64,000 bases of DNA from Bacillota bacterium (GTDB lineage Bacteria; Bacillota; Clostridia; Acetivibrionales; DUMC01), in contig JABUEW010000001.1 in assembly GCA_013314855.1 (NCBI GenBank), positions 24,377 to 88,376 of the forward strand. The letters are read 5' to 3'. A program made the position numbers and the translations under genes. Numbering within the stretch: the first letter of the stretch is position 1; each line of letters starts with the position of its first letter. This document shows, in pieces, positions 906 to 54,136 of this stretch. The notes below the pieces were generated by a model that searched no databases, was not told where the DNA came from, and saw only the letters and a program-made list of their open reading frames with translations.

Positions 906-2024
906 CTAAGGTAGAAGCTTTTCTGCCGGTACATATTCCATACCTATACTTTCCGCAATAGGCTTATTTGTTATATAGCCTTTATATGTATTTAATCCGC
1001 GCTTAAGTGAGCAATCATCTAATATAGACTTTTCAACACCATTATTGGCAACTCTCAAAATATATGGCAGAGTTACAGATGTCAAAGCAAAAGTGGAAGT
1101 CCTTGGTACCGCCCCGGGCATATTATCCACTGAGTAATGTATTACACCATATTTCTCGTAATAAGGGTTATCATGTGTTGTAACCCTATCTATTGTTTCT
1201 ATTGAACCTCCCTGATCAATAGCTACATCAACAATTACAGAACCCTTTTTCATAGTTTTTACCATCGTTTCGGATACAACCTTTGGTGCCCTGGCTCCTG
1301 CCACCAAGACCGCCCCTATCAGAAGATCTGCTTTTTTTACCATTTCAGCAGCATTATATTCATTATAAAGTAAAGTGGAAACTCTTCCTGAAAAAATGTC
1401 ATCCAACTGAGACAATCTATTTTTGTTAACATCAAGTATGGTAACCCTTGCGCCAAGCCCAATTGACATTTTTGCTGCATTTGTACCGACACAGCCTCCC
1501 CCTATAATAACAACCTCGGCTGGAAGAACTCCTGGAACACCTCCTAACAATATACCGCTTCCACCGTTATGTTTCTGCAGCATATACGCACCTACCTGTA
1601 CCGACATTCTCCCAGCTACCTCACTCATTGGTGCTAATAGCGGAAGAAAACCATTTGCCAATTGTACTGTTTCATAAGCTATGCCTATTATCTTTTTTTT
1701 AATTAAAGTTCTGGTTAAAGCCGGATTTGGCGCCAAGTGAAGATACGCAAACAGAGTTTGTCCTTCTTTCAATAAATCATATTCACTCTCGAGAGGTGCC
1801 TTAACCTTAAGTATAATATCTGCCTCAGAATATACCTCAGTGTTATTTTCAAGGATCACTGCTCCAGCTCTTTTATATTCATCATCTTCAATGCCGCTCC
1901 CAACCCCTGCTGATTTCTCAATTATTACTTTGTGACCAGCCCTAACAAGTTCATTTACCCCAGCAGGCGTTATTGCAACCCTGTTTTCATTGTTTTTTAA
2001 TTCCTTTGGAACCCCTATTATCAC
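906..2024 (-). CDS. ald: L-alanine dehydrogenase
   Basis: 372 aa. The N-terminus MIIGVPKELKNNENRVAITPAGV and the Rossmann motif VVIIGGGCVGTNAAKMSIGLGARVTILD are typical of AlaDH. GTG start preceded by GGGAGG; TAG stop. Confidence 0.9.
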   Translation of the reverse strand: MIIGVPKELKNNENRVAITPAGVNELVRAGHKVIIEKSAGVGSGIEDDEYKRAGAVILENNTEVYSEADIILKVKAPLESEYDLLKEGQTLFAYLHLAPNPALTRTLIKKKIIGIAYETVQLANGFLPLLAPMSEVAGRMSVQVGAYMLQKHNGGSGILLGGVPGVLPAEVVIIGGGCVGTNAAKMSIGLGARVTILDVNKNRLSQLDDIFSGRVSTLLYNEYNAAEMVKKADLLIGAVLVAGARAPKVVSETMVKTMKKGSVIVDVAIDQGGSIETIDRVTTHDNPYYEKYGVIHYSVDNMPGAVPRTSTFALTSVTLPYILRVANNGVEKSILDDCSLKRGLNTYKGYITNKPIAESIGMEYVPAEKLLP

Positions 2025-2088: not shown

Positions 2089-3336
2089 TTACCTTCGGTG
2101 TTTTTCTGCCACACTTTTTACAATTTGCGCTACCAATTCACAGTCCTCTTCTGTATACTTTTCACAGAATGTAGACCAGCGCAACCAGTTCTCAAGAAAT
2201 GCAGCTGCATTTGGGCACATGCTCTTATAATTATATTCGTATGATGCAGGAGGCATTGAATATGGATATACCTTATTACTTGCGTTCTCCTGCAGGAAGG
2301 TACATGCATCCGGCATGAAATAGTAACGGGCAGTACTAATCCCTGGTATTCCGGCAGCAGCACATTCCTCACCAAACTTGTCAGCAGTACAATCAAAAGC
2401 TTCAGGATCTATACTAAATCCGCACATCCAGCAGGAGTATACATCAAGATAATCTGGAATTTTATCAGGAATAATGCCAGGTATATCGGCAAGTTTTTTA
2501 TTGATAAGTCTTACCATTTTGTCCCTCTTAGCCACATTTTCCTGAATAATTTCAAGCTGGGCCAGGTTTATTGCAGCTGTACAATTAGGCATACGGATTG
2601 CACTGCCGGGTACAACATGCAGTCTTCCAAAACCGGGTTTAATTTGTGCACCCCTGCTCTGACAGCGAAACCTAGCGTATTCAGCCAATTCGTCATTATT
2701 GGTTATAAAACAGCCGCCAATATCAGATCCCATGGTTTTTTCAGCATCAAAAGAAAACGCACCTACATCACCTATTGTCCCTGCCAGTTTTCCCTTATAC
2801 CTTCCATATACAGCCTGGCACGCATCCTCTATAACCATAAGATTATATTTTTTCGCCAATTCCAAAATTGGATCCATATCACAAATAATACCTGTCATAT
2901 GAACAACAACAATTGCTCTTGTTCTATCAGTTATACAAGGCTCAATTGTTTTGGCACTTACATTTACACTGCCGGGTTCAGTATCTGCAAAAACCGGGAT
3001 ATTGTTGTTCTTAATAAATCCCATAATAGTACCGTAGTCTGTTATAGGGCTGAATATAACTTCATCTCCAGGATTAAAATTCAATGCTTCAGCCAGCATT
3101 TGAATTGCAGATGTACAACCCGGAGCAGAAACACAATGCTTTACTCCCATTGCTTCTGCATACGCCCTCTCAAACCTGCCTATCATATCAACAGTTAATC
3201 CACTGTCAACAACCTCTTGAAGGTATTTTAAAGCATTAGGCCCCATTATTCTAGGAAATGGCGTTGGCAGTTTTCCCTTTAGCCCTGCCAATGCTTCTGC
3301 TCCATATTTTGCACGTTCCAACTTCTTTTCCATCAC
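2089..3336 (-). CDS. DegT/DnrJ/EryC1/StrS-family PLP-dependent aminotransferase
   Basis: 415 aa. Has GPNALKYLQEVVDSGL, VSAPGCTSAIQMLAEAL, PGDEVIFSPITDYGT and a FSFDAEKTM Schiff-base lysine context. Confidence 0.8.
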   Translation of the reverse strand: MMEKKLERAKYGAEALAGLKGKLPTPFPRIMGPNALKYLQEVVDSGLTVDMIGRFERAYAEAMGVKHCVSAPGCTSAIQMLAEALNFNPGDEVIFSPITDYGTIMGFIKNNNIPVFADTEPGSVNVSAKTIEPCITDRTRAIVVVHMTGIICDMDPILELAKKYNLMVIEDACQAVYGRYKGKLAGTIGDVGAFSFDAEKTMGSDIGGCFITNNDELAEYARFRCQSRGAQIKPGFGRLHVVPGSAIRMPNCTAAINLAQLEIIQENVAKRDKMVRLINKKLADIPGIIPDKIPDYLDVYSCWMCGFSIDPEAFDCTADKFGEECAAAGIPGISTARYYFMPDACTFLQENASNKVYPYSMPPASYEYNYKSMCPNAAAFLENWLRWSTFCEKYTEEDCELVAQIVKSVAEKHRR

Positions 3337-3598: not shown

Positions 3599-5668
3599 TC
3601 ATTCCATTACAACAAGCCCATAGATTTTAAAATTCGGAACTTCAAACATTATCTTTCCCCTTTTTGTCTCAAATGATATTTCCTTAATGGCATGGAATTC
3701 GGGGCTAATAAATGACAACTTTTTAATAATCCTGTTTTTGGGTTGCTTAAAACTTACCTTTAAACCTGTAACAATATTTTGATAATCATAGTTCACCAAA
3801 TGCAGCATTAGCCTCCCTGTGCTTCTCTGGGTAAGAAATTCAGCAGCTGTAGTAAAAGGCCCTTCTATTCTTAAAATCTCACGGCCTTTTCTCGCCCAGT
3901 TCAAAATTTCAATTATCTCCTTCCAATTAACGGGAAGATACCCTTGAAGTCTTTTTAGGTATGGAACTGCGGGTCCAATTGAATGTCTCACATGTGATAT
4001 TTTCAAATCCTTTTCATGAGGCACCACCTTTGGAATAACAGCAAACTTTCCCTTACCAAGTGTCCCTTTTACCACTTCGTTTATTGGCCATTTGATACCA
4101 AGAACATTTTCTAGTCCGTATTCCTGCTCTTCCATAGGTACATGGAAAAGAGATACACCTTTCCTTCGTCTTCCCCACTCATCAAGAAGAGATGTCTGAT
4201 CGGTAGCTATAAGGCTTCCTCCATTTTTTACATAATTTTCAACCTGGGAAATTTGTTTGGAACTCATATATTTTACATTTGGAAGAACAAGCACTGAATA
4301 CTCTGATATATCTTCAAGGTCCTCATCATATATAACCGAATATGGGATCTTTGATCTTATAAGCGTCTCTTCAAAATATATTAGACTAATAAGAGAAGAC
4401 GTCATTGAATATGAAAGTGAAGGATATGAATTAAGAAGTGCAATTTCGGGAATTTCCTCGGTTTCCTCAAAATACTTCCTATTATGTTTAAAAAATTTAA
4501 TATATTCTTTTGTTTCTTTCTCAAGGCAATCCAATCCGGGCATACCAACCGTGTTAAATACAAAAGGATTGAACGCCATTGATTCTGCAAGATCAAGCAG
4601 TATATTTTTTCTTTGGAAATTGGTCATCCATACGCCGCGTCTAAGCTTACGAGCACTTTTAAATGTGCGTATCCTTGTAGCCAGTTTTCCGTCCTGATGC
4701 ACCCCGAGAATCCCCTGGTCTGCCTCAGCTGCAAGAGCGTCGCAGTGCGGATATATTGATGTTGGCCATATACCATGAAATACTGCGTTGTTGAGCCCCC
4801 CCATTGGGCCCATGTATGGGCAATTCCATACTATTGCAATATCAGGTGATATTTTTTTTATGTATTCCTTAAATCTCTTTGATACCTCTCCTAGTCTCCA
4901 ACATCTGAAATCTATCCATTCCTGCTGGACCGGATCATTTATAGCGCCGGGTTCTATACCTGCAAAAAGAAATGGGTCTGTATAGTTCCATTTAAGTTCA
5001 TCCACAAATACAGGTGGAAAGATTCCATCCACTTTTGGAAACCCAAACCGTTCCAACCTTGACTCCCGTGATGGGTATTTTCTGTTGAGATATTCTCTAA
5101 ATGCCTTTGTGCAATCATTACATGCGCAAGCAAAGGAATAGTAACCATAATTATCGAAAAAAACCAGATCAGCCTCCAGATTTTCAACGGCATATTTTAT
5201 GCCTTTTTCTACATACTGTAGGTACTCTTCCTTATTTATGCAGGGAATAAGCCTGAAGTATGAATTATAATAAGTCGGTTTTCTTCCCTGGTGATCTACC
5301 TGTACCCATTCCAGTACTGCTTTTTCTTCATTTACTACGCCTTCATAGAATACTGAACCTATTGATTGAACATAGGCCCCCACTTTTATACCTTTCTCGT
5401 GGAAATAGCGGGCCATCTGCCTTTGTCTTTTCATATTCTCATTATCTGCTTCATAACCAACATTATTAAATGCCTGGACAACTACCAGATCTATGCCTAG
5501 TTCATGTAGTTTTTTAGCTGTTTCTAACGAGTGCTCTTTGTTGTAAATTTCCCAAAACTGATGGGTTACAAGCCCTTTTCTCTGATTCAAAATAAGGGCT
5601 TCACCTTCCTGTACTACTATTACTCCTTTTCTTAACCAGTCTACAGAGGTCAAAGTATAATCTTTCAT
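3599..5668 (-). CDS. GH42-like protein (TIM barrel with CxCxxC cluster plus GATase1-like middle domain), paralog I
   Basis: 689 aa. SFACACNDCTKAFREYLNRKY resembles the GH42 Cys cluster followed by F..WL...Y. VLVLPNVKYMSSKQISQVENYVKNGGSLIATDQT resembles the GH42 trimerisation/GATase1-like domain. About 65-70% identical by eye to 8088..10160. Confidence 0.55.
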   Translation of the reverse strand: MKDYTLTSVDWLRKGVIVVQEGEALILNQRKGLVTHQFWEIYNKEHSLETAKKLHELGIDLVVVQAFNNVGYEADNENMKRQRQMARYFHEKGIKVGAYVQSIGSVFYEGVVNEEKAVLEWVQVDHQGRKPTYYNSYFRLIPCINKEEYLQYVEKGIKYAVENLEADLVFFDNYGYYSFACACNDCTKAFREYLNRKYPSRESRLERFGFPKVDGIFPPVFVDELKWNYTDPFLFAGIEPGAINDPVQQEWIDFRCWRLGEVSKRFKEYIKKISPDIAIVWNCPYMGPMGGLNNAVFHGIWPTSIYPHCDALAAEADQGILGVHQDGKLATRIRTFKSARKLRRGVWMTNFQRKNILLDLAESMAFNPFVFNTVGMPGLDCLEKETKEYIKFFKHNRKYFEETEEIPEIALLNSYPSLSYSMTSSLISLIYFEETLIRSKIPYSVIYDEDLEDISEYSVLVLPNVKYMSSKQISQVENYVKNGGSLIATDQTSLLDEWGRRRKGVSLFHVPMEEQEYGLENVLGIKWPINEVVKGTLGKGKFAVIPKVVPHEKDLKISHVRHSIGPAVPYLKRLQGYLPVNWKEIIEILNWARKGREILRIEGPFTTAAEFLTQRSTGRLMLHLVNYDYQNIVTGLKVSFKQPKNRIIKKLSFISPEFHAIKEISFETKRGKIMFEVPNFKIYGLVVME

Positions 5669-5716: not shown

Positions 5717-6886
5717 TCAGATATAATATGATAACCTTACTTCTATGGAACTTTTAATTCCACTCCTGCCATACTTATTAACAGTACATGCACTTATGGT
5801 ATTGCTGCCTTCTTTAAGCCGCCATTTAAACTCTTCCTGCCTGGTTTCCCAATCATTATCATCCAATTTGACAATATAATGGTCAAAATAAGGATCTGTA
5901 TTACTCATCTTTACTATTAATTTTATATCCGGGTTTTCGGGACAGTCTTCAACCGTTAATTCGATTTTAGTCTGATTGAGGGTAAAATAAACGTCATCGG
6001 GATTTTCAACCCATTGGATTTTGGGCCATGCCCTCTGGATTGGATATTCATTTACAAGCAGCAGGGCTTCTGCCATTTTATCTGAAAACATATAACTCTT
6101 ATCGGCAGCGTGTATTATAATGTAAGTGTAAAAATGCATGCTTTTGTTTATAGTAAACCGCTTCCACATTTCAATCAACTGCGCTTTACTTGAAATATAA
6201 TTGTCTGCATGATTCTTTCCGAACATCTTAAGAGTAGCATCATAAAACCCCTTTAACTGGGATTCAAGTTCATCCTGGCTAAATTTGATTTCAGGCGTTG
6301 CCGGAACCTGTTCGACATTTTTTTCTTTCCCACAAAGCCATGCTTTTCTTACTTCATAGGAATTCAAGGGTACCCCTTTTTCCTCGTAATGCCAGTCTGT
6401 TGTTGGATCAAAAACAACCCATTTTCTATAGTCATTTGACCATACTTCTGTCACACAGTGACCAGTAAAAAATGAATTTTCTGGTTCAGGTATATCGCTC
6501 TTATCTCTTAGTATACTTACAAGCCTTGCGGGAAAACCTAAGGACAGGCAGCATTGCATAAATACACTTGCATATACTCCACAGGCAAAAGTCGCTCCCT
6601 TCTCCGCTGCTTCCAGTACATCGATGGCATTACCGCTTCTAGGAACAGGATTACCTGTAAAACCATATTTCCACCTGTTTTTTACCCATTTCCTGAGTAA
6701 AACCAGTTTTTCAAATTCAGTTTTTCCATTGGCCACTACATTATCAAGGGAGTATTTCTCTCTCAAGGCCTTAAGCTTAGCATCATCATATTCAGAATAA
6801 TTATAGCGGGTATAATCACCAATGATTGTGGGATTATCATATTTAACTATCTTTAATTCTTTTAACCCTTTAAATATTCTTTCCAT
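5717..6886 (-). CDS. Transglutaminase-core-like Cys-His-Asp protein, paralog I
   Basis: 389 aa. ATFACGVYASVFMQCCLSLGFPARLV (Cys), FTGHCVTEVW (His) and WVVFDPTTD (Asp) appear in the order and spacing of the transglutaminase core. Confidence 0.65.
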   Translation of the reverse strand: MERIFKGLKELKIVKYDNPTIIGDYTRYNYSEYDDAKLKALREKYSLDNVVANGKTEFEKLVLLRKWVKNRWKYGFTGNPVPRSGNAIDVLEAAEKGATFACGVYASVFMQCCLSLGFPARLVSILRDKSDIPEPENSFFTGHCVTEVWSNDYRKWVVFDPTTDWHYEEKGVPLNSYEVRKAWLCGKEKNVEQVPATPEIKFSQDELESQLKGFYDATLKMFGKNHADNYISSKAQLIEMWKRFTINKSMHFYTYIIIHAADKSYMFSDKMAEALLLVNEYPIQRAWPKIQWVENPDDVYFTLNQTKIELTVEDCPENPDIKLIVKMSNTDPYFDHYIVKLDDNDWETRQEEFKWRLKEGSNTISACTVNKYGRSGIKSSIEVRLSYYI

Positions 6887-8087: not shown

Positions 8088-10160
8088 TCAAGCCTCCATT
8101 ATCACCAAACCATATATTTTAAAATCCGGAACCTTAAAAGATATTGAGACTCCTTTTGTTTCAAACTCAATATTTTTCTTATCTTTCAACTCAGGTGTTA
8201 AAAATGTCAATCTGTTGATCTTCATATCTGTAGGAACTTTAAAGTTTACAAATACGTCTGTGGCATTACAGTTATGATTATAGTTAACCAGGTGAAGGAT
8301 AACCCTCCCTGCATCTTTCTGCTTAAGCAGTTCTGCACAAACAGTATCAGAAGCTTTTATTTCAAGTATTTTACTGTCTTGCCTTGCCCACTCAAGAACT
8401 TCCATTATTTCAGCCTGGTTTTCCGGTAAGTAACCGAATAATGACTTTAAATAAGGAACTGCCGGCCCTATTGAATGTCTTACTTCACCCAGATTTAAGT
8501 TTTTAGAATGAGGGTAAACCCGTGGTATTATTGCAAATCTTCCTTTACCCAGTGTACCCTTTAAGATATCTTTTGTTGGCCATTTTACACTGAGTACTTT
8601 CTCAAGGCCATACTCCTGTTCTTCCAGAGGAACTGTAAATAATGATACTCCCTTGCGTCTCCTTCCCTTCTCATCCAGAAGGGATGTTTGATCAGTAGCT
8701 ATAAGGGTTCCCCCGTTCTTAACATACTTCTCAACCTGAGAAATCTGTTCCGAGCTCATATACTTTGCATTGGCAAGCACAAGCACAGGATACTCTGAAA
8801 TATCATCCAAGTCTTCATCGTATATAACAGAATATGGTATTCTTGATCTTATAAGAGTCTCTTCAACATATATAAGGCTCATCAACGGAGCTATCATATC
8901 ATATGAAAGTGAAGCATATGAGTAAAGAAGGGCAACTTCTGTAATCTCTTCAGTATCAATAAAATACTTATTGTTCTTTTTGAAAAAGCTGATATATTTT
9001 CGGGTGTCAGGTTCTAAAGCCATCAAACTTGGCGTTCCTACAGTATTATACAGGAATGGATTGTATGCCATTGATTCGGATAGATCCAGCAATATATTCT
9101 GCCTGTGGAAATTGGTCATCCAGACGCCTCGTTTAAGTGCCCGGGCATTCTTAAAGGTTCTTATCCTTGAAGAAAGCCTTCCGTCTTCATGTGCACCCAG
9201 AAGACCCTGATCTGCTTCAGCAGCAAACGCATCACAGTGTGGATAAATAGCTGTAGGCCATACACCATGAAATGCAGCATTGTTAAGTCCACCAAAAGGC
9301 CCCATATAAGGTGCATTCCATACTACAGCAATACCTGGTGATAGGCTTTTAAGGTAGTCATAAATTCTCTTTGATACCTCACCCAGCCTTGCGCACCGAA
9401 AATTTATCCATTCCTGTTGTACCGGATCACTTATCACACCTGGGTCGTACAAAGATACAAATTGGAAAGGGTCTGTAAAAGTCCATTTCAGGTTGTCAGC
9501 AAATACTGGAGGAAATATTCCATCCACTGTGGGAAAACCAAACCGCTCAATTCTCGATTCACGGGTAGGGTACTTATAATTAAGATATTTTCTGAATGCT
9601 TCCTTACAGTCGTCACATGCACAGGCAAACGAATAATAGCCGTAATTATCAAAAAATACCAGATCTGCCTCAAGGCTTTCAACTGCATATTTAAGGCCTT
9701 TTTCTATGTATCTTAGATATTCGTCCTTGTTTATACACGGTATATACCTAAAATATGAATTATAATATGTAGGATATCTCCCAAAGTAATCTTTTTGAAC
9801 CCATTCTAAGCACGATGGTTCTTCTGTTATTACTCCTTCATAAAGAATGGAACCTATTGTCTGTACATAAGCGCCAACCTTTATTTCTCTTTCATGCAAA
9901 TATTTAGCAATTTGTCTTTCCATAATAATAAATTCGTCATCAGCATCATACCCCATAGAATTGAAACCGCCAATTGTAACTAGATCTATACCCAACTCTT
10001 TTAGCTTATCTGCAGCTTCAGGCAAGTGTTCTGTTCTAAAAATTTCTGCAGATTTTAAGGTAGTTAGGCCCTTTCTTGCTTGGAACGGGTGCTCAACTTC
10101 TTGAACAACTATAATACCCTTCTTTAGCCATTGAACATCAGTAATTTTTAAATTTTTCAT
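8088..10160 (-). CDS. GH42-like protein, paralog II
   Basis: 690 aa, collinear with 3599..5668. Has SFACACDDCKEAFRKYLNYKY and VLVLANAKYMSSEQISQVEKYVKNGGTLIATDQT. Confidence 0.55.
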   Translation of the reverse strand: MKNLKITDVQWLKKGIIVVQEVEHPFQARKGLTTLKSAEIFRTEHLPEAADKLKELGIDLVTIGGFNSMGYDADDEFIIMERQIAKYLHEREIKVGAYVQTIGSILYEGVITEEPSCLEWVQKDYFGRYPTYYNSYFRYIPCINKDEYLRYIEKGLKYAVESLEADLVFFDNYGYYSFACACDDCKEAFRKYLNYKYPTRESRIERFGFPTVDGIFPPVFADNLKWTFTDPFQFVSLYDPGVISDPVQQEWINFRCARLGEVSKRIYDYLKSLSPGIAVVWNAPYMGPFGGLNNAAFHGVWPTAIYPHCDAFAAEADQGLLGAHEDGRLSSRIRTFKNARALKRGVWMTNFHRQNILLDLSESMAYNPFLYNTVGTPSLMALEPDTRKYISFFKKNNKYFIDTEEITEVALLYSYASLSYDMIAPLMSLIYVEETLIRSRIPYSVIYDEDLDDISEYPVLVLANAKYMSSEQISQVEKYVKNGGTLIATDQTSLLDEKGRRRKGVSLFTVPLEEQEYGLEKVLSVKWPTKDILKGTLGKGRFAIIPRVYPHSKNLNLGEVRHSIGPAVPYLKSLFGYLPENQAEIMEVLEWARQDSKILEIKASDTVCAELLKQKDAGRVILHLVNYNHNCNATDVFVNFKVPTDMKINRLTFLTPELKDKKNIEFETKGVSISFKVPDFKIYGLVIMEA

Positions 10161-10189: not shown

Positions 10190-11350
10190 CTAAACTTCAA
10201 AGGAAAGGTTAACGGTTATCGAACTTTCTATGCCATACCTTCCTTTTTTATTTACTGTACGCGCACGAATTTGGTTATCGCCTTCTCTAATAGTCCATAT
10301 AAATTCCGGTTCACTCTCTTTCCATTCACCTGTATCAATGCAAACTTGATAATAACTAAAATCGGGATCAGTATTTTTCATCTTTACTTCAAGTTGAAAG
10401 GGCTTCTCTTGTCCATCCACTACTCGAATCTCAATAAAGGTTTGATTAAGGGTGAAGTAAACATCATCAGAATTTGAGGTCCATGTAATATTCGGCCATG
10501 CCCTCTGGATAGGGTATTCATTTACCAGGAGCAAAGGTCCTTCTTTTTCATCGGCAAACATATAATTTTTTTCTCCTGCACCAATTATAACGTATGTATA
10601 AAAATGCATATTCTTGTTTTCTGTAAATCTGGACCATACAGTATAAACATCACTGGTTTTTGATATATACCTATCGGCATAATCCTTACCCATTAAATCT
10701 TCAGCTGCTTTGTAGTGCCTTTTGAGATAACCCTCCAAATCTTCTGGAAGCACATCAGTTACGGTTCTTTCCGGCACCTGTAATACCTTAGATGCTTCTC
10801 CATTAAGCCAGGCTTTTCTTATTTCATAAGCATTTAAAGGTATGCCGTCTTTCTCATAATAACAATCCATATCCGTATCAATAACTGCCCATTTTTTATA
10901 TTCATTAGTCCATACTTCATTAATACAATGACCTGTGTTAATGGCATCTATAGGATCAGGTATATCACTTCCATCGCGAAGAATGGATACAAGTCTTGCA
11001 GGAAAACCCAAAGCAGCACAACATTGTTGATAAACACTTGAATATACTCCACATGCAAAAGTTGCTCCTTTTTCGGCCGCTTCTAATATATCTAGTGCAT
11101 GGCCGCCTTTAGGTACAGGCGACCATCCATGAACCCACCTGCTTTTAACCCATTGTCTAAGTAAATTTAGCTTATCCCAATCAGTCCTTCCGGATTCTAT
11201 TACCCTGTCAAGAGAATATTTGTCAACTAGCATTTTCAGTTTCATTCTATCAAATTCGGGTACTTTAAAGCGGGTGTAGTCTCCAATTATGTTGGCATTA
11301 TTATATTTTGTAATTTTCAATGCTCTTAAACCTTTAAAAGCCTTAATCAT
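10190..11350 (-). CDS. Transglutaminase-core-like Cys-His-Asp protein, paralog II
   Basis: The track ORF starts at 11380. Alignment with paralog I (MERIFKGLKELKIVKYDN vs MIKAFKGLRALKITKYNN) favours ATG at 11350, which overlaps the upstream stop by 8 nt. Motifs present: FACGVYSSVYQQCCAALGFPARLV, NTGHCINEVW, WAVIDTDMD. Confidence 0.65.
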   Translation of the reverse strand: MIKAFKGLRALKITKYNNANIIGDYTRFKVPEFDRMKLKMLVDKYSLDRVIESGRTDWDKLNLLRQWVKSRWVHGWSPVPKGGHALDILEAAEKGATFACGVYSSVYQQCCAALGFPARLVSILRDGSDIPDPIDAINTGHCINEVWTNEYKKWAVIDTDMDCYYEKDGIPLNAYEIRKAWLNGEASKVLQVPERTVTDVLPEDLEGYLKRHYKAAEDLMGKDYADRYISKTSDVYTVWSRFTENKNMHFYTYVIIGAGEKNYMFADEKEGPLLLVNEYPIQRAWPNITWTSNSDDVYFTLNQTFIEIRVVDGQEKPFQLEVKMKNTDPDFSYYQVCIDTGEWKESEPEFIWTIREGDNQIRARTVNKKGRYGIESSITVNLSFEV

Positions 11351-12950
11351 ATTTAATCTCTCCTTTATGTTTTTCCCCATTTAACAAAGTATAAAGTTCA
11401 GGCCTCCTTGCTTCCATAATTCTATTCCTAAAATTAAAGTCTTTTATTACCTTTCCTTCTCTATACACAAAACTAACTTTTTCCCTCACTGCATTCATGT
11501 CTATTTGAGCTATATATGCCCCTTCAAGGTCATAGTTAGATGCGAAAACGGTTTCACCAGTAGCGTCAATAATATTACTACGAAGTTTCACCTGAGAAGA
11601 TGGAAATGCACATGTTACTATATAAGCACAGTTCTCAATTGCCCAAGCCCTGAAAACCCCTTCATTTATTGAATTAGCATCGTAACCCCAACTTTGGGTT
11701 TGATTTATTATTATTTCTGCACCTTTTAAACCTAGTATTCTGGGTATTTCTTGACAATATGAATCGGCACAAATTACAAACCCGACTTTGCCGAAATCAA
11801 GTTCTACAATCTCTATTTCAATACCCGTAGGTAATTCCTTATTATACATCATGGTGCATGTATTTACCTTTTCATACTTGTGTATAATATTACCGCTGCG
11901 ATCAAACAGTAATGTAGTATTTATCCCGTCAAAACAGTCGTTTACAGCGATATAGCATTTATTATTTCTTGCACACGCAGAATACATACTTATTTTCTCA
12001 TCCTGAAATTCAACCTTTATTCTACCTTTAGGGTTATATTCCATAGTTGAAAATTCCGAGCATATAACTATATCACATTTGGATGCTATGCTATTTATAT
12101 AATCACACTGCTTTATATACCAGCTTTTTTCATTACTAGATATAGTATCACTATAACTCATCTGAACAAATCCTATTACAGGCTTTTCAACTGAATATAC
12201 TTTTTTTTCATATGTACTACTTTTCAATATATCTTTAAATATACCTCTTTGGTTTTGATGGTATACTATACTTCCATAGCCGTAAATATATTTCTCAATT
12301 TGTCTTTTCTTTGAAAGATCAATTTCACAAATAATAAAACCTTTTTCTCTTCCCGTGGAAGCGATAACATCCCCTCTCAAATCATAAACAGCAGCCCTGC
12401 CTGTATGCCTTCCTAATCCATTAGAATTAAAACTCTTCTCCAATTGTTCAATAGAATACCCATTTTCTCTGTTCAGCAACTCATAATTATTTGTCATATA
12501 CATACCTGTATGGCTTGCATATGCCGAGGCTGCTACATAAAAGTAGTCAGCAATAGCCCTGCCTCTTAACAGATAATTCTGTTCCGTATCATCTCTTAAA
12601 GGCCAGACACCTAAAGAACATAGTAAAATTTCTGCACCCTTAATGGAATATATTTCAGCTAGTTCAGGAATAAATATATCGGTTCCCGCCATTAAACCGA
12701 CTTTACCAAAGTCCAACTCAAAAACTGGCATATCACTGCCTAATGCTAAGTCAATGTCGAGCCCCTCAATTTTATGAGTTTTAACATATTCTCCAATAAA
12801 TCGGCCATCTCTGCCGATAATTTTTGAAATGCAAGCATTTCTTCCATTATTTCTTACAAGTGTATTATATACTACATAGCAATTGTTTTCTCTGGCATGT
12901 TTAGAAAATAGCTCCTCTTTTATCTTAATAGTATGAATTCGAAAACCCAT
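11343..12950 (-). CDS. Tandem-domain carbon-nitrogen hydrolase (nitrilase superfamily); first domain truncated and degenerate
   Basis: 535 aa. Domain 2 has ICSEFS (Glu), YEKVNT (Lys) and DFGKVGFVICADSYC (Cys). Domain 1 aligns only from the middle of the fold and has DFGKVGLMAGTD, with no Cys. Confidence 0.65.
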   Translation of the reverse strand: MGFRIHTIKIKEELFSKHARENNCYVVYNTLVRNNGRNACISKIIGRDGRFIGEYVKTHKIEGLDIDLALGSDMPVFELDFGKVGLMAGTDIFIPELAEIYSIKGAEILLCSLGVWPLRDDTEQNYLLRGRAIADYFYVAASAYASHTGMYMTNNYELLNRENGYSIEQLEKSFNSNGLGRHTGRAAVYDLRGDVIASTGREKGFIICEIDLSKKRQIEKYIYGYGSIVYHQNQRGIFKDILKSSTYEKKVYSVEKPVIGFVQMSYSDTISSNEKSWYIKQCDYINSIASKCDIVICSEFSTMEYNPKGRIKVEFQDEKISMYSACARNNKCYIAVNDCFDGINTTLLFDRSGNIIHKYEKVNTCTMMYNKELPTGIEIEIVELDFGKVGFVICADSYCQEIPRILGLKGAEIIINQTQSWGYDANSINEGVFRAWAIENCAYIVTCAFPSSQVKLRSNIIDATGETVFASNYDLEGAYIAQIDMNAVREKVSFVYREGKVIKDFNFRNRIMEARRPELYTLLNGEKHKGEIKYD

Positions 12951-13104: not shown

Positions 13105-14649
13105 TTGAAGTGGATGGTATTTTTTACCATTACTTTGATTACGGAGGTTTTATTTATGCTGCGTGATTGGCCCTCCCACGAGGAGTACCAGAAAAATCTT
13201 CTTTTGCACCTAGTCTTTTTCTACTTGACCGATAGGGAAAGGGTGGTTGAGTTGAAAGAGTCTATTTCCAAACTCTTTATGCTCAACCTTGACCTGGCTT
13301 ACCCTATCCTCAAACCGCTATATTCCAATACCGGACGTCCGGCTAAGAATCAGCAAGGTATTATCCGCTCCTTAGTCCTTATGCTTGACCAGGGTGAGCA
13401 TGACATACCTAAGTGGGCAGCCAGAGTCGCCAGTGATAAGCTGCTTTGCGCTATATGTGGGTTTGAATATGGCAAAGCGCCATCCTTCAGCTCATATTAC
13501 GATTTGACCAAGCGACTCTGGCAAGCCTCTCATGAAGTGCAGGTAGCCAGAAAGAAAAAGCTCCGCACTTTTAAGCCTAAGCCCCGCAAGAAGCCTGGGG
13601 CCGGTAAAAAATATGTCCTCTTGAGACATAATGGCGTTGTTAAAAAGTTCGCCTCTCTTGCAATCCGGGACAAACTCCCCGAGTATCGCCCTGAGATAGT
13701 TTTGCAGAAGCTCCTGGCCAGATGTGTTGTCGATACTTCCCTTAAAATGGGCATCCTTGGCAACCCCAAAAGCTTCTCTATCTCTAATGACGGCACTCCC
13801 TATTATTCAGGTGCCAGCCACTATGGTGTAAAAGTCTGTGATTGCAAATCCAAGGGGATCTTTGACTGCAAGTGCAAAAGACGCTATTCCGACCTCGATG
13901 CTACTTGGGGTTGGGACAGCTACCGCGAACAGTGGTTCTACGGCGATACACTGTTTGTTTGCACTGCAGCAGACAGCCCCTACGACTTGCCTATTTATCT
14001 TCGCAAAGCTCAAGCTCAAAGACATGACAGCATTATTGCCATTTTCGCACTGGATGAAGTCAGAAAGCTTTACCCGGACATTACCTTTAAGAATTATTTA
14101 GCTGATGGCTCCATGGACAATTACCCTACCTATAAGCTCCTCCAGCACCATAACATGATCCCTTTTATCCCTCTCGACTCCAATGCCAAGTTCCCGGATA
14201 AGAATCTGCCTGCTGGAGTCCTTTGCTTTGATGATAAGGGAAACCCTATTTGCATGGGTGGTATACCTTATCAAAACTGCGGATACTCTTATCCTAAAGG
14301 TATCAAATACAGGTGTTGGTTTGACTACTATAGGATTGATAAACCTTGCAGCTGCAGCAACAGCCCCTATGGTAGAACCATTTATATTAAACCGGACTAT
14401 GATCCAAGGCTTTTCCCTCCCGTATCCCGCAACTCCGATACCTTCATAGAGACGCTTAAGCGTCGGACTACAGTGGAACGTAGTCATAAAAGGCTTTTTA
14501 AAGACTACGATATTGAAGCGGGAAACTGCCGTAGTTCAAAAGAGCGTTTTATGCGGGCTACCATGGCTGCTATCAATATACACCTGGATGCCTGGATTAA
14601 GCACACCGGATTCAGTATTATTACTTCGCTTGAAGAACTGGCCGGTTAA
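13105..14649 (+). mobile_element. Insertion sequence with an intact DDE transposase (IS5/IS1182-like; DUF772-type N-terminus plus DDE_Tnp_1-type core); termini not resolved
   Basis: The likely true start is ATG at 13156 (GGAGG 9 nt upstream; MLRDWPSHEEY...). Has GRPAKNQQGIIRSLVLMLDQG, DATWGWDSYREQWFYG, LADGSMDNYPTYKLL and RRTTVERSHKRLFKDY. It is the only + strand gene in a 50-kb minus-strand run. Confidence 0.8.
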
Positions 14650-14835: not shown

Positions 14836-15588
14836 CTACAAGACTTCCATCCTACTTTTCGAATTCATACAAACAGTTTTTATTCCATCCTCAAAAATGT
14901 TTTTTCTATCACCGGCATCAGTAAATACATCACATATATTCATTATTTCTATATCCTGAAAATACTCAGGAGCATTGGAGCCGAAAACAACTTTCCCCTG
15001 AATATTATTTATTTTCTAATGACAAAAGTTGGCAGGCCCATTCCGTGAAGTTTCAATCCACAGGTTATCTGCAAATTCAAGTGCCCTTATTGTATCATTG
15101 TAATAGTCGCTGGCACCACCGTGCCCCATAATAAAATTTACATGTTGGAAAAGCCTGGCAAGTTCAGCAGCATGAAAAGGTTCGGCTATACCTGCCGTAC
15201 CTGTATGCACGTAAACAGGCACCTTATATTCGTCCGCTATTTCCAATAGCGGATATACCAGGGGATCTGCCAACCGGAAACCATGAATAACAGGATGAAG
15301 TTTAAGTCCCATCAACCCATCATCAAGTGCTTTCCGTAGTTCATCACAAGCTTCCTTGCCAAACCATGGGTTCACTGACGCCATTCCTGCAAACCTATCC
15401 GGATGATTTTTTACTGCACCTGCAATTAATTTATTTCCTTCTCTGTTTGCAACAGTCAAATACCTATCCATTGGACAAGTTATGGCAAAATCTACTCCTG
15501 CTTTATCCATTTGTTTCAGTAGTGTATATTCGTCAAGCTGCATTTTTATACCATTCCCTAAATGTACATGGCAATCAATTTTTTTCAT
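14836..15588 (-). pseudogene. Amidohydro_2-type metal-dependent hydrolase interrupted by a single in-frame TAG (15016..15018)
   Basis: The track ORF 15016..15588 ends ...ETSRNGPANFCH*. The same frame continues as KINNIQGKVVFGSNAPEYFQDIEIMNICDVFTDAGDRKNIFEDGIKTVCMNSKSRMEVL* to 14836. The combined 250 codons align gap-free with the 248-aa paralog 33891..34637 (DTSHNLSSAILGLIQAAGEDRVIFGSNMP). Confidence 0.75.
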
Positions 15589-19686: not shown

Positions 19687-21675
19687 TCAATAAATCAATT
19701 CAACTGCCATGTATACCCTTGTGCCATCCATATAAACAGGCAAACTGACCCTATCTCCATCAATACTGCATTTTGATATAAGGTCCTGTCCGGTCATAAC
19801 ATCTTTAAAGCTTTTCACAACTTTTCCTTCCGGTATTTTCAACACTAGATTTGTTTCATAAGCTAATGCAACATAATTTATAATAAGACAAAAAATTGAG
19901 TTTTCAGAAATCATGGGAAACAACTCCATAGTAGGAACATCTCTTATGTCCCATGGGCGAAGAGTCCTATAGGCATTTGGAGGAGGCCATGGTTCCAGAC
20001 AAGCTGTCGGTACATCTTTCGCAAGCCATTTCAGGAGATTCTTAAATAAGCTTATTCCCCCTGTAAATTGCCGTACTGAGCCGTGAGATCCCGGTTTAAC
20101 ATAATCATACACCGGTACACCGGATATCCATGCCTCCCGTTCAATACCATTATTCTTTACGATAATAACCGGTTTGTTTTCATGTTCAGCTATAACATCC
20201 CCGGAAATAGCCGGTTTAAAGGTTGCAAAATCCATAACTATCTTAGGATAATCTGCAATTATTCCCCACTTATTCTCCTTTACTTCGAAAATAATACGGC
20301 TGTTTTCATTCCAGTCTTTCCCTTCAACAAATGGACTTTGCCCTACCCACAATATGCCAACGCCTTTCCGTTTAAGCATTTGTATGGCTGAAAGCTGACC
20401 CTCGGGTAATATACACGCTTCAGGTACAACCATAACTTTAGTATTCCACCGGCTTGCCCTGTCTTTAATGCAGCTATCGAATACCCATTCCCATGGAAAT
20501 CCTACCTGATTCATAATGGAAGGCCACCTATTCAAATATTTATCTCCCCAGTTTCCTTCCTGATAAATTTTAATATGTGTATACTGGGGATTTACAACAC
20601 TTACATAGGTATAAGGTTCACTTTTTTCAAAATATCTTTTCATTTTCATAGATTCTCCAAAAGCTTCGGAAAATCCTGGTATAAGTTTCATCAATTCATA
20701 TGAATAAGGGGTAACCGCATTTGCTCCCAGGGCAAAAGGAATGGTTCCCGCTAATAATCCATCCTTCTCTGTTAGTTCATAAGAGGTAAGTGGCGGGAAG
20801 AATGCCTGAGGGTAAATATTCATTTCACAATCCACAGTTGCCCCCTTTAACATTCTGGTGGATTCAGTCAGGAATCTTTCGCAAGGTTTATATGAATATA
20901 AAGCAGTATGTGTTTTATGATATGGATCGGTGCTTATGATATCAAGGTTACGTGCATCCCCAGGTAAATCAATTCCAAGTACAAATGGGTTTACCATATT
21001 TGCGACAATACTTGGAGAATATTGAATTCCTACACGGATATCCGGTCTTTTCTGTTTAATAACGGTTTTAAAATATTTATGTACTTCATTCCATGATCTC
21101 ATACGATATGAATTCCATTTTCCCCATAATTCCTCGTCTTCTTTTGTTGCTGACAACGGCGGATAATGTCCGGTTTCTAAAAAGAATTGGTTTTTGCAGT
21201 AATCACAGTAGCATCCTATGGAGTTGCCGGAAAAACCAATAGATGCTTCATCGTTCAGATGAATTTCAGTGACAGCTTTAACTTTTATTATATTCATCAA
21301 AAAATCTACATAATCAGCTTTGTTTTCAGGTTGAAACGGACAAAGCCAATTTACAGTTGTAAGCCCATCACTGTCAATACTTCCTCCTGAGCAAACCATC
21401 TTTCTATGAGGATACGACTGAAGCAGTTCTTCCTGATATTTCTGATACCCTGTAAACACCTGGATTGGTAAAGCGTATTTGTCACAAATCCTCACCAGTT
21501 CATAAAACTCTTCCATGCTGAAACCCTGTCCGGTAAATTCAGGTTTTTTTGCTTGCGATACTACAACTGCTATACCTGTATACCCTTCTTCCTTAATTTT
21601 TTTTATAGTTTCATCATTTAATGATTTTCCGGGAAAAATTATAAGCGCATTATAGCGAATTTTTTTCATCTTCAA
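19687..21675 (-). CDS. GH42-like protein, divergent paralog III
   Basis: 662 aa. Has SIGCYCDYCKNQFFLETGHY (CxCxxC) and VMVVPEACILPEGQLSAIQMLKRKGVGILWVG (GATase1-like). The start is ambiguous, either TTG 21675 or ATG 21669. Confidence 0.45.
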   Translation of the reverse strand: MKMKKIRYNALIIFPGKSLNDETIKKIKEEGYTGIAVVVSQAKKPEFTGQGFSMEEFYELVRICDKYALPIQVFTGYQKYQEELLQSYPHRKMVCSGGSIDSDGLTTVNWLCPFQPENKADYVDFLMNIIKVKAVTEIHLNDEASIGFSGNSIGCYCDYCKNQFFLETGHYPPLSATKEDEELWGKWNSYRMRSWNEVHKYFKTVIKQKRPDIRVGIQYSPSIVANMVNPFVLGIDLPGDARNLDIISTDPYHKTHTALYSYKPCERFLTESTRMLKGATVDCEMNIYPQAFFPPLTSYELTEKDGLLAGTIPFALGANAVTPYSYELMKLIPGFSEAFGESMKMKRYFEKSEPYTYVSVVNPQYTHIKIYQEGNWGDKYLNRWPSIMNQVGFPWEWVFDSCIKDRASRWNTKVMVVPEACILPEGQLSAIQMLKRKGVGILWVGQSPFVEGKDWNENSRIIFEVKENKWGIIADYPKIVMDFATFKPAISGDVIAEHENKPVIIVKNNGIEREAWISGVPVYDYVKPGSHGSVRQFTGGISLFKNLLKWLAKDVPTACLEPWPPPNAYRTLRPWDIRDVPTMELFPMISENSIFCLIINYVALAYETNLVLKIPEGKVVKSFKDVMTGQDLISKCSIDGDRVSLPVYMDGTRVYMAVELIY

Positions 21676-21807: not shown

Positions 21808-22884
21808 TCATAGCCTGATAAGCTGGTACCTGTCTTTATCAAGAGGATAATTATGATATCTGATTGATTTATCTCTTGATTTTACAAAACTGGCACTGTA
21901 AGTTAGCCAATCTCCGATATTAAGTCCTTGTATCTGAAGTATCCGCCCCGGCCATCCTTTTTCATAAGAAAAATCTATCATCTCATCCATGGTTTCCATA
22001 GCTTTAAAACGCTCCCTGTTGTAATTCACATACATTACCCTGTTCATTGAGTTCAGATGGTAGGAAGAACCCCAGAAATCCGATCTAATATTTAGTGAAG
22101 GTTTCACCAGGTCCGGGTGTTGAAAATGATTTACTTCAAGGATAATTCCGTCTTCCGGCTCACGGAAGGCTATATTTTCAGACTCAAACTCAATACCCAG
22201 AGCATCTCCCTTTGAATCAGCAACTACAATATTTATTCCTTTTACACCAGAGCACTTGTATCGATTTGCATAATATCTGGCATCTTTGCAGTCGGAGCAA
22301 TACTGTGCAAAAATTCGCGTCCACCAATATAAATTTATTGTTTCAGGATTGTCTTGGAAATTAAATTTTGGATGACCGGAAGCTCCTCCTACCATCAAAC
22401 CGGCATCATTTACCGCTGTTGCAGGCGATAAAGTTATACATGACTGTATGGCTGCATATGCGTGTGGTTTCAATCCACGATGAATTACCGCACGGTCGCC
22501 CCTTTGATACCAGGACGTTACTTCCTCCAAACTGAACGGATCAATTGTGCGTAACATAATCGGACCATCATTGCGCGTCTGTATTGCAAGTGCTGAACAA
22601 CCCGTATTTCCGGTAGAGTAAATCTGGGTGAAATAAGCTTCTTCAGGGCTTAATCCTGCAGCAGCACCAAAGGCCTCCACCTCTTCTATCAGCTCTGGAA
22701 ATTCCCTCTTCATAAATACAAAATTCTTTCTGAAATATGGAGATTCAAAGGAATCATTAGTCTTCCAGTATTTTTTCAATACCTCTCTTACCATTTCAGG
22801 TGAATTTTCCCCCAACAGCCTTCCCCTGTTTGAAGAATCTCCTGTAAGTTCAATGACTTCAACCAACGGTACTTCGTTATTCAT
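21808..22884 (-). CDS. Peptidase C45 / acyl-CoA:6-APA acyltransferase-like Ntn hydrolase
   Basis: 358 aa. Has an N-terminal GDSSNRGRLLGE and a candidate Cys nucleophile in YSTGNTGCSALAIQ. Confidence 0.55.
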   Translation of the reverse strand: MNNEVPLVEVIELTGDSSNRGRLLGENSPEMVREVLKKYWKTNDSFESPYFRKNFVFMKREFPELIEEVEAFGAAAGLSPEEAYFTQIYSTGNTGCSALAIQTRNDGPIMLRTIDPFSLEEVTSWYQRGDRAVIHRGLKPHAYAAIQSCITLSPATAVNDAGLMVGGASGHPKFNFQDNPETINLYWWTRIFAQYCSDCKDARYYANRYKCSGVKGINIVVADSKGDALGIEFESENIAFREPEDGIILEVNHFQHPDLVKPSLNIRSDFWGSSYHLNSMNRVMYVNYNRERFKAMETMDEMIDFSYEKGWPGRILQIQGLNIGDWLTYSASFVKSRDKSIRYHNYPLDKDRYQLIRL

Positions 22885-24025: not shown

Positions 24026-25060
24026 TCATTTATCTAAATTATTTAATATAATAACCTGCCCGCTTTTAGCTGACTCAACCACAGCCCGTGCAACCTCTAC
24101 TGCAGCCCGGCAATCCTGGGGTCCGGCACCTGATGGCTTTCTTCCCTCCTGGATTGCCGATGCAAAATCTTCAATCTCATCTCTTATAGGAAATATAAGT
24201 TTTCCATAAAGATTCTCGGCACTATATGGACTAAAATATGTTGTTTTCCCCGAACCCCAGAAGGAATAATCAGAGCCTGGGTCCGTAAATTGGATAGTGC
24301 CATCTGTACCTATTACTTCCAATCTGTGATCCATAACTACAGGAGCACCCTCCGGTATATGAAAAACCTGTTCCATTGTTCCAATAACACCATTTTCCAT
24401 TTTCAATATAACCATCCATGTATCTGCAAACGGTAGACCTAATAGGTTCCTGGATTCAGCAAATACTCTGGTTACCTTGCTTCCTGTAATCCATAAAAAA
24501 AGGTCAGTAGTATGAATTCCCGGTTCTATTATCAGCTCCGGTATATTTCCCTGATAACGGGGTAGTGAAAGGTTGGGTGGTCTACCATTACGTCTTGATG
24601 CTATTGATACTATCTTTCCTATTTCACCGCTTTCCACCATGCTTTTAATTTTTACAAAATTTGGAATATAGCGGTTAATGTAACCTACCAGAACAATTAA
24701 ACCTTTTTCCCCGGCAAGCCTTATTACTTTGTCATGGTCTTCCAGATTTGCACTTAACGGTTTTTCAACAAATACATGTTTGCCATTTTTCAATGCTTCC
24801 AAAGTTATATCTGCATGCCTAATTGCCTCTGTAATAATGCATACTGCATCTATATCCGGCAATTGCACTAATTCCCGGTAATCTTGATAAGTATTTTTTA
24901 CACCATACTTGCCGGCAATTTCCTGAAGTCTAGCTTCATTTCTGGAACAGATTGCCGAAAGCTCCATTCTTGGGCTATAATGTATTATGTTAGCATATTT
25001 TTCCCCAAAATTACCCAATCCTATAAGTCCAATTTTAACCTTGTTTTTATGTATATTCAT
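24026..25060 (-). CDS. Gfo/Idh/MocA-family NAD(P)-dependent oxidoreductase
   Basis: 344 aa with KIGLIGLGNFGEKY and HVFVEKPL. Confidence 0.85.
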   Translation of the reverse strand: MNIHKNKVKIGLIGLGNFGEKYANIIHYSPRMELSAICSRNEARLQEIAGKYGVKNTYQDYRELVQLPDIDAVCIITEAIRHADITLEALKNGKHVFVEKPLSANLEDHDKVIRLAGEKGLIVLVGYINRYIPNFVKIKSMVESGEIGKIVSIASRRNGRPPNLSLPRYQGNIPELIIEPGIHTTDLFLWITGSKVTRVFAESRNLLGLPFADTWMVILKMENGVIGTMEQVFHIPEGAPVVMDHRLEVIGTDGTIQFTDPGSDYSFWGSGKTTYFSPYSAENLYGKLIFPIRDEIEDFASAIQEGRKPSGAGPQDCRAAVEVARAVVESAKSGQVIILNNLDK

Positions 25061-27620: not shown

Positions 27621-27732
27621 GTATTAATACCCCCTCTTTCTAACGTAGTGTTAAACTATTTACGCTCAAATAAATTTTAAAGTCTTTATTTATCAAAGGG
27701 TTAAATGTTTTTTATATAAAAAAGAATAACAC

Positions 27733-29034: not shown

Positions 29035-29263
29035 ATGGGAAACCTTCTTTGCCTTTTGACTCAAGACTATGAGTAACACCTTTATGTGTCAAATAAAAAT
29101 TATTTTCTTGAGCAACATACTCATTTTCACCTACTGTTATTTTGCCTGTTCCGCTTAGCACGTAAATATAATGGTAGTATTCATGTTTATGAGTCGGTAA
29201 TTTATCTCCTGATACATAACTTTCTTTTGAAAACCAAATTACATCTATGCCGCAATCAAGCAT
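29033..29263 (-). CDS. Small cupin-domain protein, possibly the N-terminal remnant of an AraC-type regulator
   Basis: 76 aa with AGGAG RBS. Has PTHKHEYYHYIYVLSGTG...THKGVTHSL. Its stop codon lies 1-2 nt from the putative IS3 terminus. Confidence 0.4.
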   Translation of the reverse strand: MLDCGIDVIWFSKESYVSGDKLPTHKHEYYHYIYVLSGTGKITVGENEYVAQENNFYLTHKGVTHSLESKGKEGFP

Positions 29264-29312
29264 AAAAACACTCCTATATAGAAAATGTTAACGGTTTTAT
29301 CCCCCTAATACT

Positions 29313-33029: not shown

Positions 33030-33117
33030 CACCCCTATTACTATTAATACTCTATACAATCTATACAATTTGCTTTTTATCAGTTATATTACCGGTAATG
33101 AACCATTCTCTAATTAG

Positions 33118-34619: not shown

Positions 34620-34655
34620 ATTTTTTATTCCCCGCATATAAATATTTTACTTAAA

Positions 34656-34710
34656 CATATTGCCTTAATCGACATGTTTCGACATATTTCGGGTGGTGCC
34701 AGGCACCTTA
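34656..34710 (-). repeat. 55-nt repeat, copy 1, overlapping the last 15 codons and stop of 34665..35852
   Basis: About 84% identical to 36816..36870. Contains the palindrome GGTGCCAGGCACC and the direct repeat TCGACATGTTTCGACAT. Confidence 0.8.
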
Positions 34711-53914: not shown

Positions 53915-54136
53915 TTTCAACACTCCTCGTTAGTAGAATAACTTTTTATCGTATGACTTTTTAATACCTACTCAATAAACTTAATAATTTAATGCTAATC
54001 TCATAATACTACATCCAGCAATGTACTGTAAACAAACATTAATTTTATACATACATTATTTTCATTCATAATTTTCATTCATACTTTTATTTGTTTTAAA
54101 TCAAATACAAGCTTAATTAAGCAAGTTTAGGACAAT

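Follow-up and report, generated by a model that had tools for sequence, protein, structure and literature searches.

The window analysed here, a stretch of 64,000 nucleotides from contig JABUEW010000001.1 of a Bacillota bacterium, has a G+C content of 36% and encodes four paralogous proteins (I to IV) related to glycoside hydrolase (GH) family 42, whose catalytic residues are the subject of this analysis. Protein I is the product of a single open reading frame (ORF). The four genes are located as follows:

3599..5668, minus strand: protein I, 689 residues
8088..10160, minus strand: protein II, 690 residues, 67% identical to protein I
19687..21675, minus strand: protein III, 662 residues, a divergent relative
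36815..38797, minus strand: protein IV, 660 residues, a distant member of the I/II family

Residues 170-194 of protein I read FFDNYGYYSFACACNDCTKAFREYL. The initial annotation, made by eye, had quoted one such segment from each paralog, and all four segments are present in the window, in I, II, III and IV. Searched as a degenerate DNA pattern, the motif FFDNYGYY gave two matches in the window, one in I and one in II; from shuffled sequences, 0 were expected. A database protein identical to I, from a 'Firmicutes bacterium' metagenome-assembled genome, is named 'beta-galactosidase trimerization domain-containing protein'. No apparent signal peptide was seen by eye at any of the four N-termini, and proteins I, II and IV are predicted to be cytoplasmic for this reason. 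The residues used in the following comparisons were mapped to these positions:

5240..5242, minus strand: C143 of I, the distal fourth Cys of the cluster
5138..5161, minus strand: FFDNYGYY (residues 170-177 of I), at the end of barrel strand 4
5153..5155, minus strand: D172 of I, predicted nucleophile
5150..5152, minus strand: N173 of I, which follows D172
5147..5149, minus strand: Y174 of I, aligned with the GH42 acid/base Glu
5111..5128, minus strand: C181-x-C183-x-x-C186 of I, three of the four Cys of a predicted metal site
4823..4825, minus strand: N282 of I, last residue of strand 5, aligned with N214 of GH151
4724..4726, minus strand: E315 of I, first residue after strand 6, predicted general acid/base
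9648..9650, 9216..9218 and 9606..9623, minus strand: D171, E315 and the Cys cluster of II
38231..38236, 37943..37945 and 37874..37876, minus strand: D188-N189, N285 and E308 of IV, whose cysteines are C159, C196, C198 and C201

For family collection, a single-sequence search was run with protein I and returned 62 relatives. In a profile search of 1.84 billion cluster representatives (clusters at 50% identity), the number of matching clusters was 9069 at E<=1e-3, falling to 4190 at E<=1e-10 and to 920 at E<=1e-30. Lineages of the family include Firmicutes, Planctomycetota, Acidobacteriota, KSB1 and others. The family profile was built from 182 near-full-length sequences sharing ~25-30% identity; protein IV aligned with it at Prob 99.8% and E 1.9e-28 (hhalign). 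D172 is kept in 181/182 sequences, Y99 in 179/182, N282 in 177/182, R139 and K337 in 174/182 each, W121 in 173/182 and N173 in 148/182. At the position of E315, Glu was found in 170 and Asp in 10 of the 182 sequences. Judged from this alignment, 'FDN' is the signature of the whole family and not a decayed N-E.

The GH42 pattern to which the initial annotation had referred was confirmed on real GH42 sequences, in which NEY lies at about residue 150 and is followed by CxCxxC and FRxWL, with LMEQ at about residue 305. A reference profile was built from 16 GH42 sequences; only fragments of up to 395 residues were retrieved, so that it represents the barrel and not the full-length protein. Alignment of the family with this profile (hhalign) covered 302-303 columns with Prob 99.1-99.2% and E 1.8e-18 to 1.5e-19. 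Within a stretch of high posterior, H-V-N-N-E-Y-G of GH42 was paired with F-F-D-N-Y-G-Y of protein I, which places N-N-E on D172-N173-Y174 and the acid/base Glu on Y174 in I, Y173 in II and N190 in IV. In HMMER alignments that run gapless from the Cys cluster (3tts and 4oif with phmmer; 9ta3 with the family hidden Markov model (HMM)), the GH42 Glu was placed on Y176. A profile alignment placing a Glu at the acid/base position had been named as the outcome that would overturn the by-eye reading; phmmer, the family HMM and hhalign were all run, and none of the three gave a Glu there in protein I in any register. The claim that I, II and IV read D-N-(Y/N) where N-E-Y is expected was thus right about the missing Glu, but its register was off by one according to hhalign. 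Across the family the residue at the Y174 position is variable and mostly hydrophobic, and Glu is absent there from the 25 commonest residue patterns tabulated.

The strand-7 nucleophile of GH42 was not found either. In the hhalign alignment the Glu of LMEQ stands opposite a gap next to T349 of I, and positions 347-350 are occupied by F/L, T/A/S/V, Y and T/S, with no conserved acid in the 182 sequences. Because this nucleophile is also absent, the whole strand-4/strand-7 Glu/Glu machinery is gone and not one residue. In place of the Glu/Glu pair of clan GH-A (strands 4 and 7), the family conserves as its acids an Asp (strand 4) and a Glu (strand 6). A reading in which D-N is a mutated GH42 N-E was rejected, since the strand-7 nucleophile is missing as well and FDN occurs family-wide.

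In Pfam searches of I, II and IV, the GH42 middle domain (GH42M, PF08532) was the sole finding, with 34.9, 29.8 and 25.8 bits, respectively, at a cut-off of 25.8. The GH42 catalytic model PF02449 reached 15.3 bits (E 0.013) over a 29-residue stretch of I, below its cut-off of 21; it had no match in II or IV at E<=0.01, and none in IV even at E<=10. No NCBIfam family was assigned to I, II or III, and IV gave only a negligible match to a GlmA middle domain. As judged from these comparisons, I, II and IV fall outside GH42, both catalytic Glu positions being without Glu.

For structural analysis, an AlphaFold2 (AF2) model of protein I was used (predicted local distance difference test (pLDDT) 86, predicted template modelling score 0.90), in which eight barrel strands were resolved. 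It comprises a triosephosphate isomerase (TIM) barrel (residues ~10-400), a GH42M-like alpha/beta domain of Rossmann-like fold (~403-560) and, at the C-terminus, a beta-sandwich (~599-688). According to DSSP, D172 closes strand 4 (168-172), N282 closes strand 5 (278-282) and E315 directly follows strand 6 (311-314). A Foldseek search of the PDB with this model returned three-domain structures of GH42, GH151, the GH35-type enzymes GlmA and IaSGT, and GH164 with similar scores. GH42 and GH151 were not separated by this search, both having E ~1e-23 to 1e-24 and a TM score of ~0.6.

Among PDB sequences, the family profile matched best to 6tvk (1.8e-13), the GH151 enzyme ALfuk2 of Paenibacillus thiaminolyticus, and the family HMM aligned D-G-I-F-L-D and CYCTTC of 6tvk over D-x-[LIV]-x-F-D-N and CxCxxC of the family. 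In the GH151 alpha-L-fucosidase, the nucleophile is reported to be D154 at the end of strand 4 and the acid/base E235 at the end of strand 6 (PMC10154630). A 95-residue GH151 fragment used as query gave short fragments only; a GH151 profile was instead prepared from genomic loci (~75 ORFs, including the ALfuk2 ORF of P. thiaminolyticus, in which D154, E235 and H503 were confirmed). Alignment of the family with this profile (hhalign) extended over ~570 columns and all three domains, with Prob 99.8-100% and E 7.7e-28 (local) or 4.5e-41 (global). D172 was paired with D154, N282 with N214 and the Cys cluster with that of GH151 at high posterior. Equivalence of E315 with E235 is proposed mainly because both end strand 6 and E315 is the sole invariant acid there. 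On sequence grounds, the three-domain fold of the FDN family shares homology with GH42 as well as with GH151.

GH151 ALfuk2 (6TVK; GHL6, PF14871, plus GH42M) has the same domain order as the family and shares with it the strand-end Asp (strand 4) and Asn (strand 5), probably the Glu that ends strand 6, and the CxCxxC with a distal Cys after strand 4. It differs from protein I in overall sequence (~18% identity), in a long insertion of protein I between strands 4 and 5 (residues ~200-250), and in that I has no GHL6 match, no conserved counterpart of His503 and no fucose genes in its context. GHL6, which GH151 itself matches, gave no match to I, III or IV even at E<=10; some distant family members reach up to 32 bits, at a cut-off of 35. 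A GHL6 match has also been described for Mfuc3 (PMC4723247) and occurs in the short homologues of the ALfuk2 barrel segment. Sub-threshold matches to GHL6, GHL15 and GH66 over the stretch of strands 3-4 were seen in some family members and not in protein I. In the window, genes for fucose utilisation were not seen.

Several points weigh against a GH151-like assignment. The pairing of E315 with E235 has a low posterior (~0.1-0.2), and the roles of D154 and E235 themselves rest on mutagenesis, docking and quantum mechanics/molecular mechanics calculations with no trapped intermediate (PMC10154630). For the barrel alone, GH42 (E 1.5e-19) is the better match than GH151 (E 2.2e-12), both reference profiles being shallow (effective number of sequences ~3). 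His503, by which the GH151 active site is completed from the neighbouring chain, has no conserved counterpart; the stretch of protein I aligned with its region (~555-565) is unconserved and modelled at pLDDT <50. No characterised member of the family was found in the literature. It seems fair to place the family between GH42 and GH151 and not inside GH151, and to describe its barrel sequence as GH42-like with conserved active-site residues that match those of GH151. By the same comparisons, I, II and IV appear to share the features of GH151 at superfamily level only.

The Cys cluster was considered separately. In the hhalign alignments, C143, C181, C183 and C186 of protein I correspond to the four Cys of GH42 and to those of GH151, the CxCxxC pairing with C161/C163/C166 of GH151 at high posterior. 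All four are present in 111/182 sequences and absent as a full set in 71/182; they are almost always lost together, in 37/182 along with a short deletion (pattern N--S). The statement that these proteins keep the Cys cluster applies to protein I, including the distal C143, but not to the family as a whole, where the cluster is an all-or-none block. A catalytic or defining role of the cluster was rejected, as it is lost en bloc in ~40% of members. It looks like an optional, putatively structural metal (Zn) site, and has no bearing on the loss of the GH42 Glu. The Cys-less members amount to a natural experiment on the dispensability of the metal site.

From the homology, conservation and strand positions described above, catalytic roles, stereochemistry and substrate were inferred. 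On balance, we favour the view that I, II and IV are cytoplasmic retaining glycosidases with a GH151-like Asp/Glu pair, members of a large uncharacterised family homologous to GH42 and GH151. The reaction would follow a classical retaining double displacement, in which D172 would attack C1 to form a glycosyl-enzyme and E315 would protonate the leaving group and then activate water. N173, N282, Y99 and W121 would help to hold the sugar. The putative Zn site, which lies on the loop that follows strand 4, would have been inherited from a common ancestor with GH42 and GH151. To our knowledge, every TIM-barrel GH family with an Asp nucleophile on strand 4 cleaves axial (alpha) linkages, and an alpha-glycosidase is therefore predicted. 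The proteins may act as exo-alpha-glycosidases on oligosaccharides imported by the adjacent ATP-binding cassette (ABC) systems; amino sugars are suggested by the gene neighbourhood, and an amino-sugar-containing glycan is our best guess for the substrate. The suggestion in the initial annotation that the proteins are not retaining glycosidases of the canonical type is borne out in that I, II and IV lie outside canonical GH42, but most likely they are still retaining glycosidases, of another catalytic type. A relocated acid/base, the other option it had offered, came near the truth, with the acid/base predicted on another strand, but left out that the strand-7 nucleophile is also absent.

Two alternatives to such Asp/Glu hydrolases are each considered unlikely, to a similar degree. 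In a substrate-assisted hexosaminidase, an idea also put forward in the initial annotation, the 2-acetamido group of the sugar would serve as nucleophile, polarised by D172, with E315 as acid/base. At L005 and L006 the family member has NagA-like and NagB-like genes as neighbours, at L009 a NagA-like gene; the window itself contains two carbohydrate esterase family 4 (CE4) deacetylases, three DegT aminotransferases and an N-acetyltransferase. This support is confined to gene neighbourhood, and NagA/NagB neighbours were found in only 3 of ~12 contexts examined. Known neighbouring-group families have adjacent D-E or D-D, or else N-x-E, whose Glu belongs to the same loop. In the FDN family, D172 is followed by Asn and the only conserved Glu lies two strands off; moreover, the conserved pair appears to match that of an enzyme whose nucleophile is reportedly an Asp. 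In the other alternative, the same Asp/Glu chemistry on the same scaffold would serve a retaining glycoside phosphorylase or transglycosidase. A strand-4 Asp with a Glu acid/base supports both activities in GH13, which provides a precedent, and a GH35-type three-domain relative detected by Foldseek is a beta-1,2-glucosyltransferase (7vkw and related entries). The cytoplasmic location would also suit phosphorolysis, which saves ATP. No sequence feature specific for phosphate binding was identified, though, and the nearest characterised relatives, GH151 and GH42, are hydrolases.

It is quite improbable that the proteins are GH42-like but catalytically dead and serve in sugar binding or as scaffolds, for instance in partnership with the adjacent transglutaminase-fold enzymes. 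Such a role would agree with the absence of both GH42 catalytic Glu and with the pairing of I/II subfamily genes with a transglutaminase-core gene. Against it, D172, N282 and E315 are near-absolutely conserved at strand ends in the 182 sequences, which is an active-site pattern, and these residues appear to match the catalysts of a working enzyme. The lyase and pure-binding functions raised in the initial annotation are likewise disfavoured, because the invariant strand-4 Asp and strand-6 Glu appear to coincide with the nucleophile and acid/base of GH151. A GH42-type enzyme with the acid/base alone relocated and the strand-7 Glu nucleophile kept, as the relocation option of the initial annotation would mean if taken literally, is hardly credible: the barrel is homologous to that of GH42 (E 1.5e-19) and the Cys cluster and FRxYL helix are common to both, but positions 347-350 hold no conserved carboxylate and the Glu of LMEQ is aligned with a gap.

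The FDN proteins, with their predicted Asp/Glu pair, probably form a new GH family. A bolder proposal, which we regard as tentative and doubtful in its entirety, is that they constitute a new CAZy-level family between GH42 and GH151 in which the catalytic machinery, and probably also the anomeric specificity, was switched within one three-domain scaffold with a putative Zn site, that protein III may keep or have re-created a GH42-like state, and that I/II would act as a fixed pair with a peptide N-glycanase (PNGase)-like amidase on an unusual amino-sugar glycoconjugate. The family links GH42 and GH151 by sequence and bears on the exchange of catalytic residues between TIM-barrel strands. The Asp/Glu pair is a testable prediction, as to residues and anomer, for a family that is uncharacterised and comprises at least ~900 clusters (50% identity). 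This family probably accounts for thousands of database entries named 'beta-galactosidase' or 'beta-galactosidase trimerization domain-containing protein', which are unlikely to be beta-galactosidases. For GH151 enzymes, too, homology has led to the label 'beta-galactosidase trimerisation domain protein' (PMC4723247).

Protein III was aligned with the family at E 5.9e-18 (full length) and 2.8e-16 (barrel alone), compared with 4.8e-4 for GH42 (hhalign), and a plain GH42 assignment was rejected on these barrel values. Its N141-D142-E143 (21247..21255) corresponds to D172-N173-Y174 of I, and Q218 and D250 occupy the positions of N282 and E315. E143 was aligned with the GH42 acid/base Glu, and E283 lies near strand 7. 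Through E143 and E283, III may be an exception to the absent GH-A pair; it may equally use an Asp-based pair in shifted positions. Its AF2 model is weak (pLDDT 66), and values drop below 50 in the segments that follow strands 4 and 7.

Other known systems were compared with the family. The GH42 enzymes Gan42B (4OIF), BiBga42A (8IBR) and 3TTS are the best Foldseek matches (E ~1e-24, TM ~0.6-0.65) and have the four-Cys site, the FRxWLxxKY helix and the GH42M middle domain in common with it, whereas their catalytic acids lie on strands 4 and 7 and the conserved acids of the family on strands 4 and 6. GH29 and the strand-4-Asp TIM-barrel families (GH27/31/36, GH13, GH66, GH101/129) resemble it in an Asp that ends strand 4 and comes after a hydrophobic strand (motif D-x-[LIV]-x-F-D), the Asp being catalytic in those families, and differ in having neither the GH42M domain nor the Cys cluster. 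GH29, like GH151, has its acid/base on strand 6, and short GH151-like fragments also match the GH29 model PF01120. Protein I had no significant sequence match to GH29/27/31/36/13/66/101/129. The same three-domain architecture is found in GlmA (a GH35-type exo-beta-D-glucosaminidase), IaSGT (a beta-1,2-glucosyltransferase) and a GH164 beta-mannosidase (Foldseek E ~1e-18 to 1e-20), which are clan GH-A Glu/Glu enzymes. No barrel-level sequence match to these three was seen; the Pfam model GLMA_2nd weakly matched the middle domain.

Of the 45 long ORFs taken as genes in the window, 3 lie on the plus strand. The genes next to the paralogs are as follows:

5717..6886, minus strand: transglutaminase-core protein (PNGase-like Cys hydrolase fold), directly upstream of I; PF01841 5e-15
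10190..11380, minus strand: second transglutaminase-core protein, directly upstream of II; PF01841 match
34665..35852, minus strand: 395-residue protein, two genes from IV; weak matches to beta-propeller families (tachylectin, DUF5074)
35874..36743, minus strand: 289-residue protein beside IV; PF01841 E 0.0042, below the curated cut-off
21808..22884 and 38888..39928: two AAT/C45-like (N-terminal nucleophile hydrolase) genes, beside III and beside IV

The two transglutaminase-core proteins are 57% identical and the adjoining I and II 67%, and a two-gene module was therefore duplicated in tandem. The same pairing was found on unrelated contigs beside the closest metagenomic relatives, P0003 (48% identity) and, weakly, P0006 (transglutaminase-core genes at L092:1-657 and L091:2464-3459). 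In a comparison of the transglutaminase-core partner with the PDB, the only echo was PNGase around the catalytic Cys, with a non-significant E-value. The product of 34665..35852 matched genes in L005, L006 and L009 by BLASTP (up to 7e-15). At these three unrelated loci (L005:8181-10887, L006:4659-7102 and L009:3155-5685) a family member is accompanied by two paralogous proteins of ~380-445 residues, a NagA-like amidohydrolase and a transporter; a NagB-like gene occurs at two of the three (L005 and L006). The paralogous proteins, of which the product of 34665..35852 is a homologue, have weak matches to DUF5074, tachylectin and strictosidine-synthase-like models, which are beta-propeller families. 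Other homologues adjoin GH36, GH2, GH26, GH92 and true GH42 genes and sugar transporters.

Elsewhere in the window, ABC sugar transporters, AraC regulators, two CE4 deacetylases, a C-N hydrolase and a BNR_4 protein are encoded, and further genes of possible relevance to the substrate are listed below:

906..2024: alanine dehydrogenase
2089..3336, 52595..53923 and 56729..57883: three DegT aminotransferases
24026..25060, 58019..59029 and 60646..61641: three Gfo/Idh/MocA oxidoreductases
29313..30155: AAC(3)-type (aminoglycoside-3-N-acetyltransferase-like) acetyltransferase
15016..15588, 33118..33873, 33891..34637, 48971..49750 and 49737..50513: five Amidohydro_2 paralogs, including two adjacent pairs

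With four paralogs, aminotransferases, deacetylases and several amidase families, the window looks like catabolic operons for an amino-sugar-rich glycan, to whose pathway the four paralogs would be entry points. Sugar-aminotransferase and oxidoreductase genes are unusually dense in the window and lie in apparent catabolic operons together with ABC sugar transporters and AraC regulators. The window could encode a pathway for the deamination of non-C2 amino sugars. An Amidohydro_2 gene also adjoins the family member P0020 in L094.

No Rfam match at gathering thresholds was obtained anywhere in the 64 kb. The 598-residue protein encoded by 31272..33068 had only a weak ThuA-like match (E 0.0034); the ThuA fold class is that of the GH42M middle domain. 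A region of 1.7 kb without a long ORF (27621..29312), located between the AraC regulator and acetyltransferase genes, contains a 119-residue fragment (27930..28289), similar by eye to an IS3-type integrase core in its C-terminal part, and is probably a decayed mobile element. A DDE transposase gene (13105..14649, plus strand) is the sole plus-strand gene of its stretch and lies between the C-N hydrolase gene and the Amidohydro_2 ORF 15016..15588 (minus strand). The latter encodes 190 residues, is 49% identical to the 248-residue paralog of 33891..34637 and looks truncated; for this reason, insertion of the transposase may have disrupted the operon.

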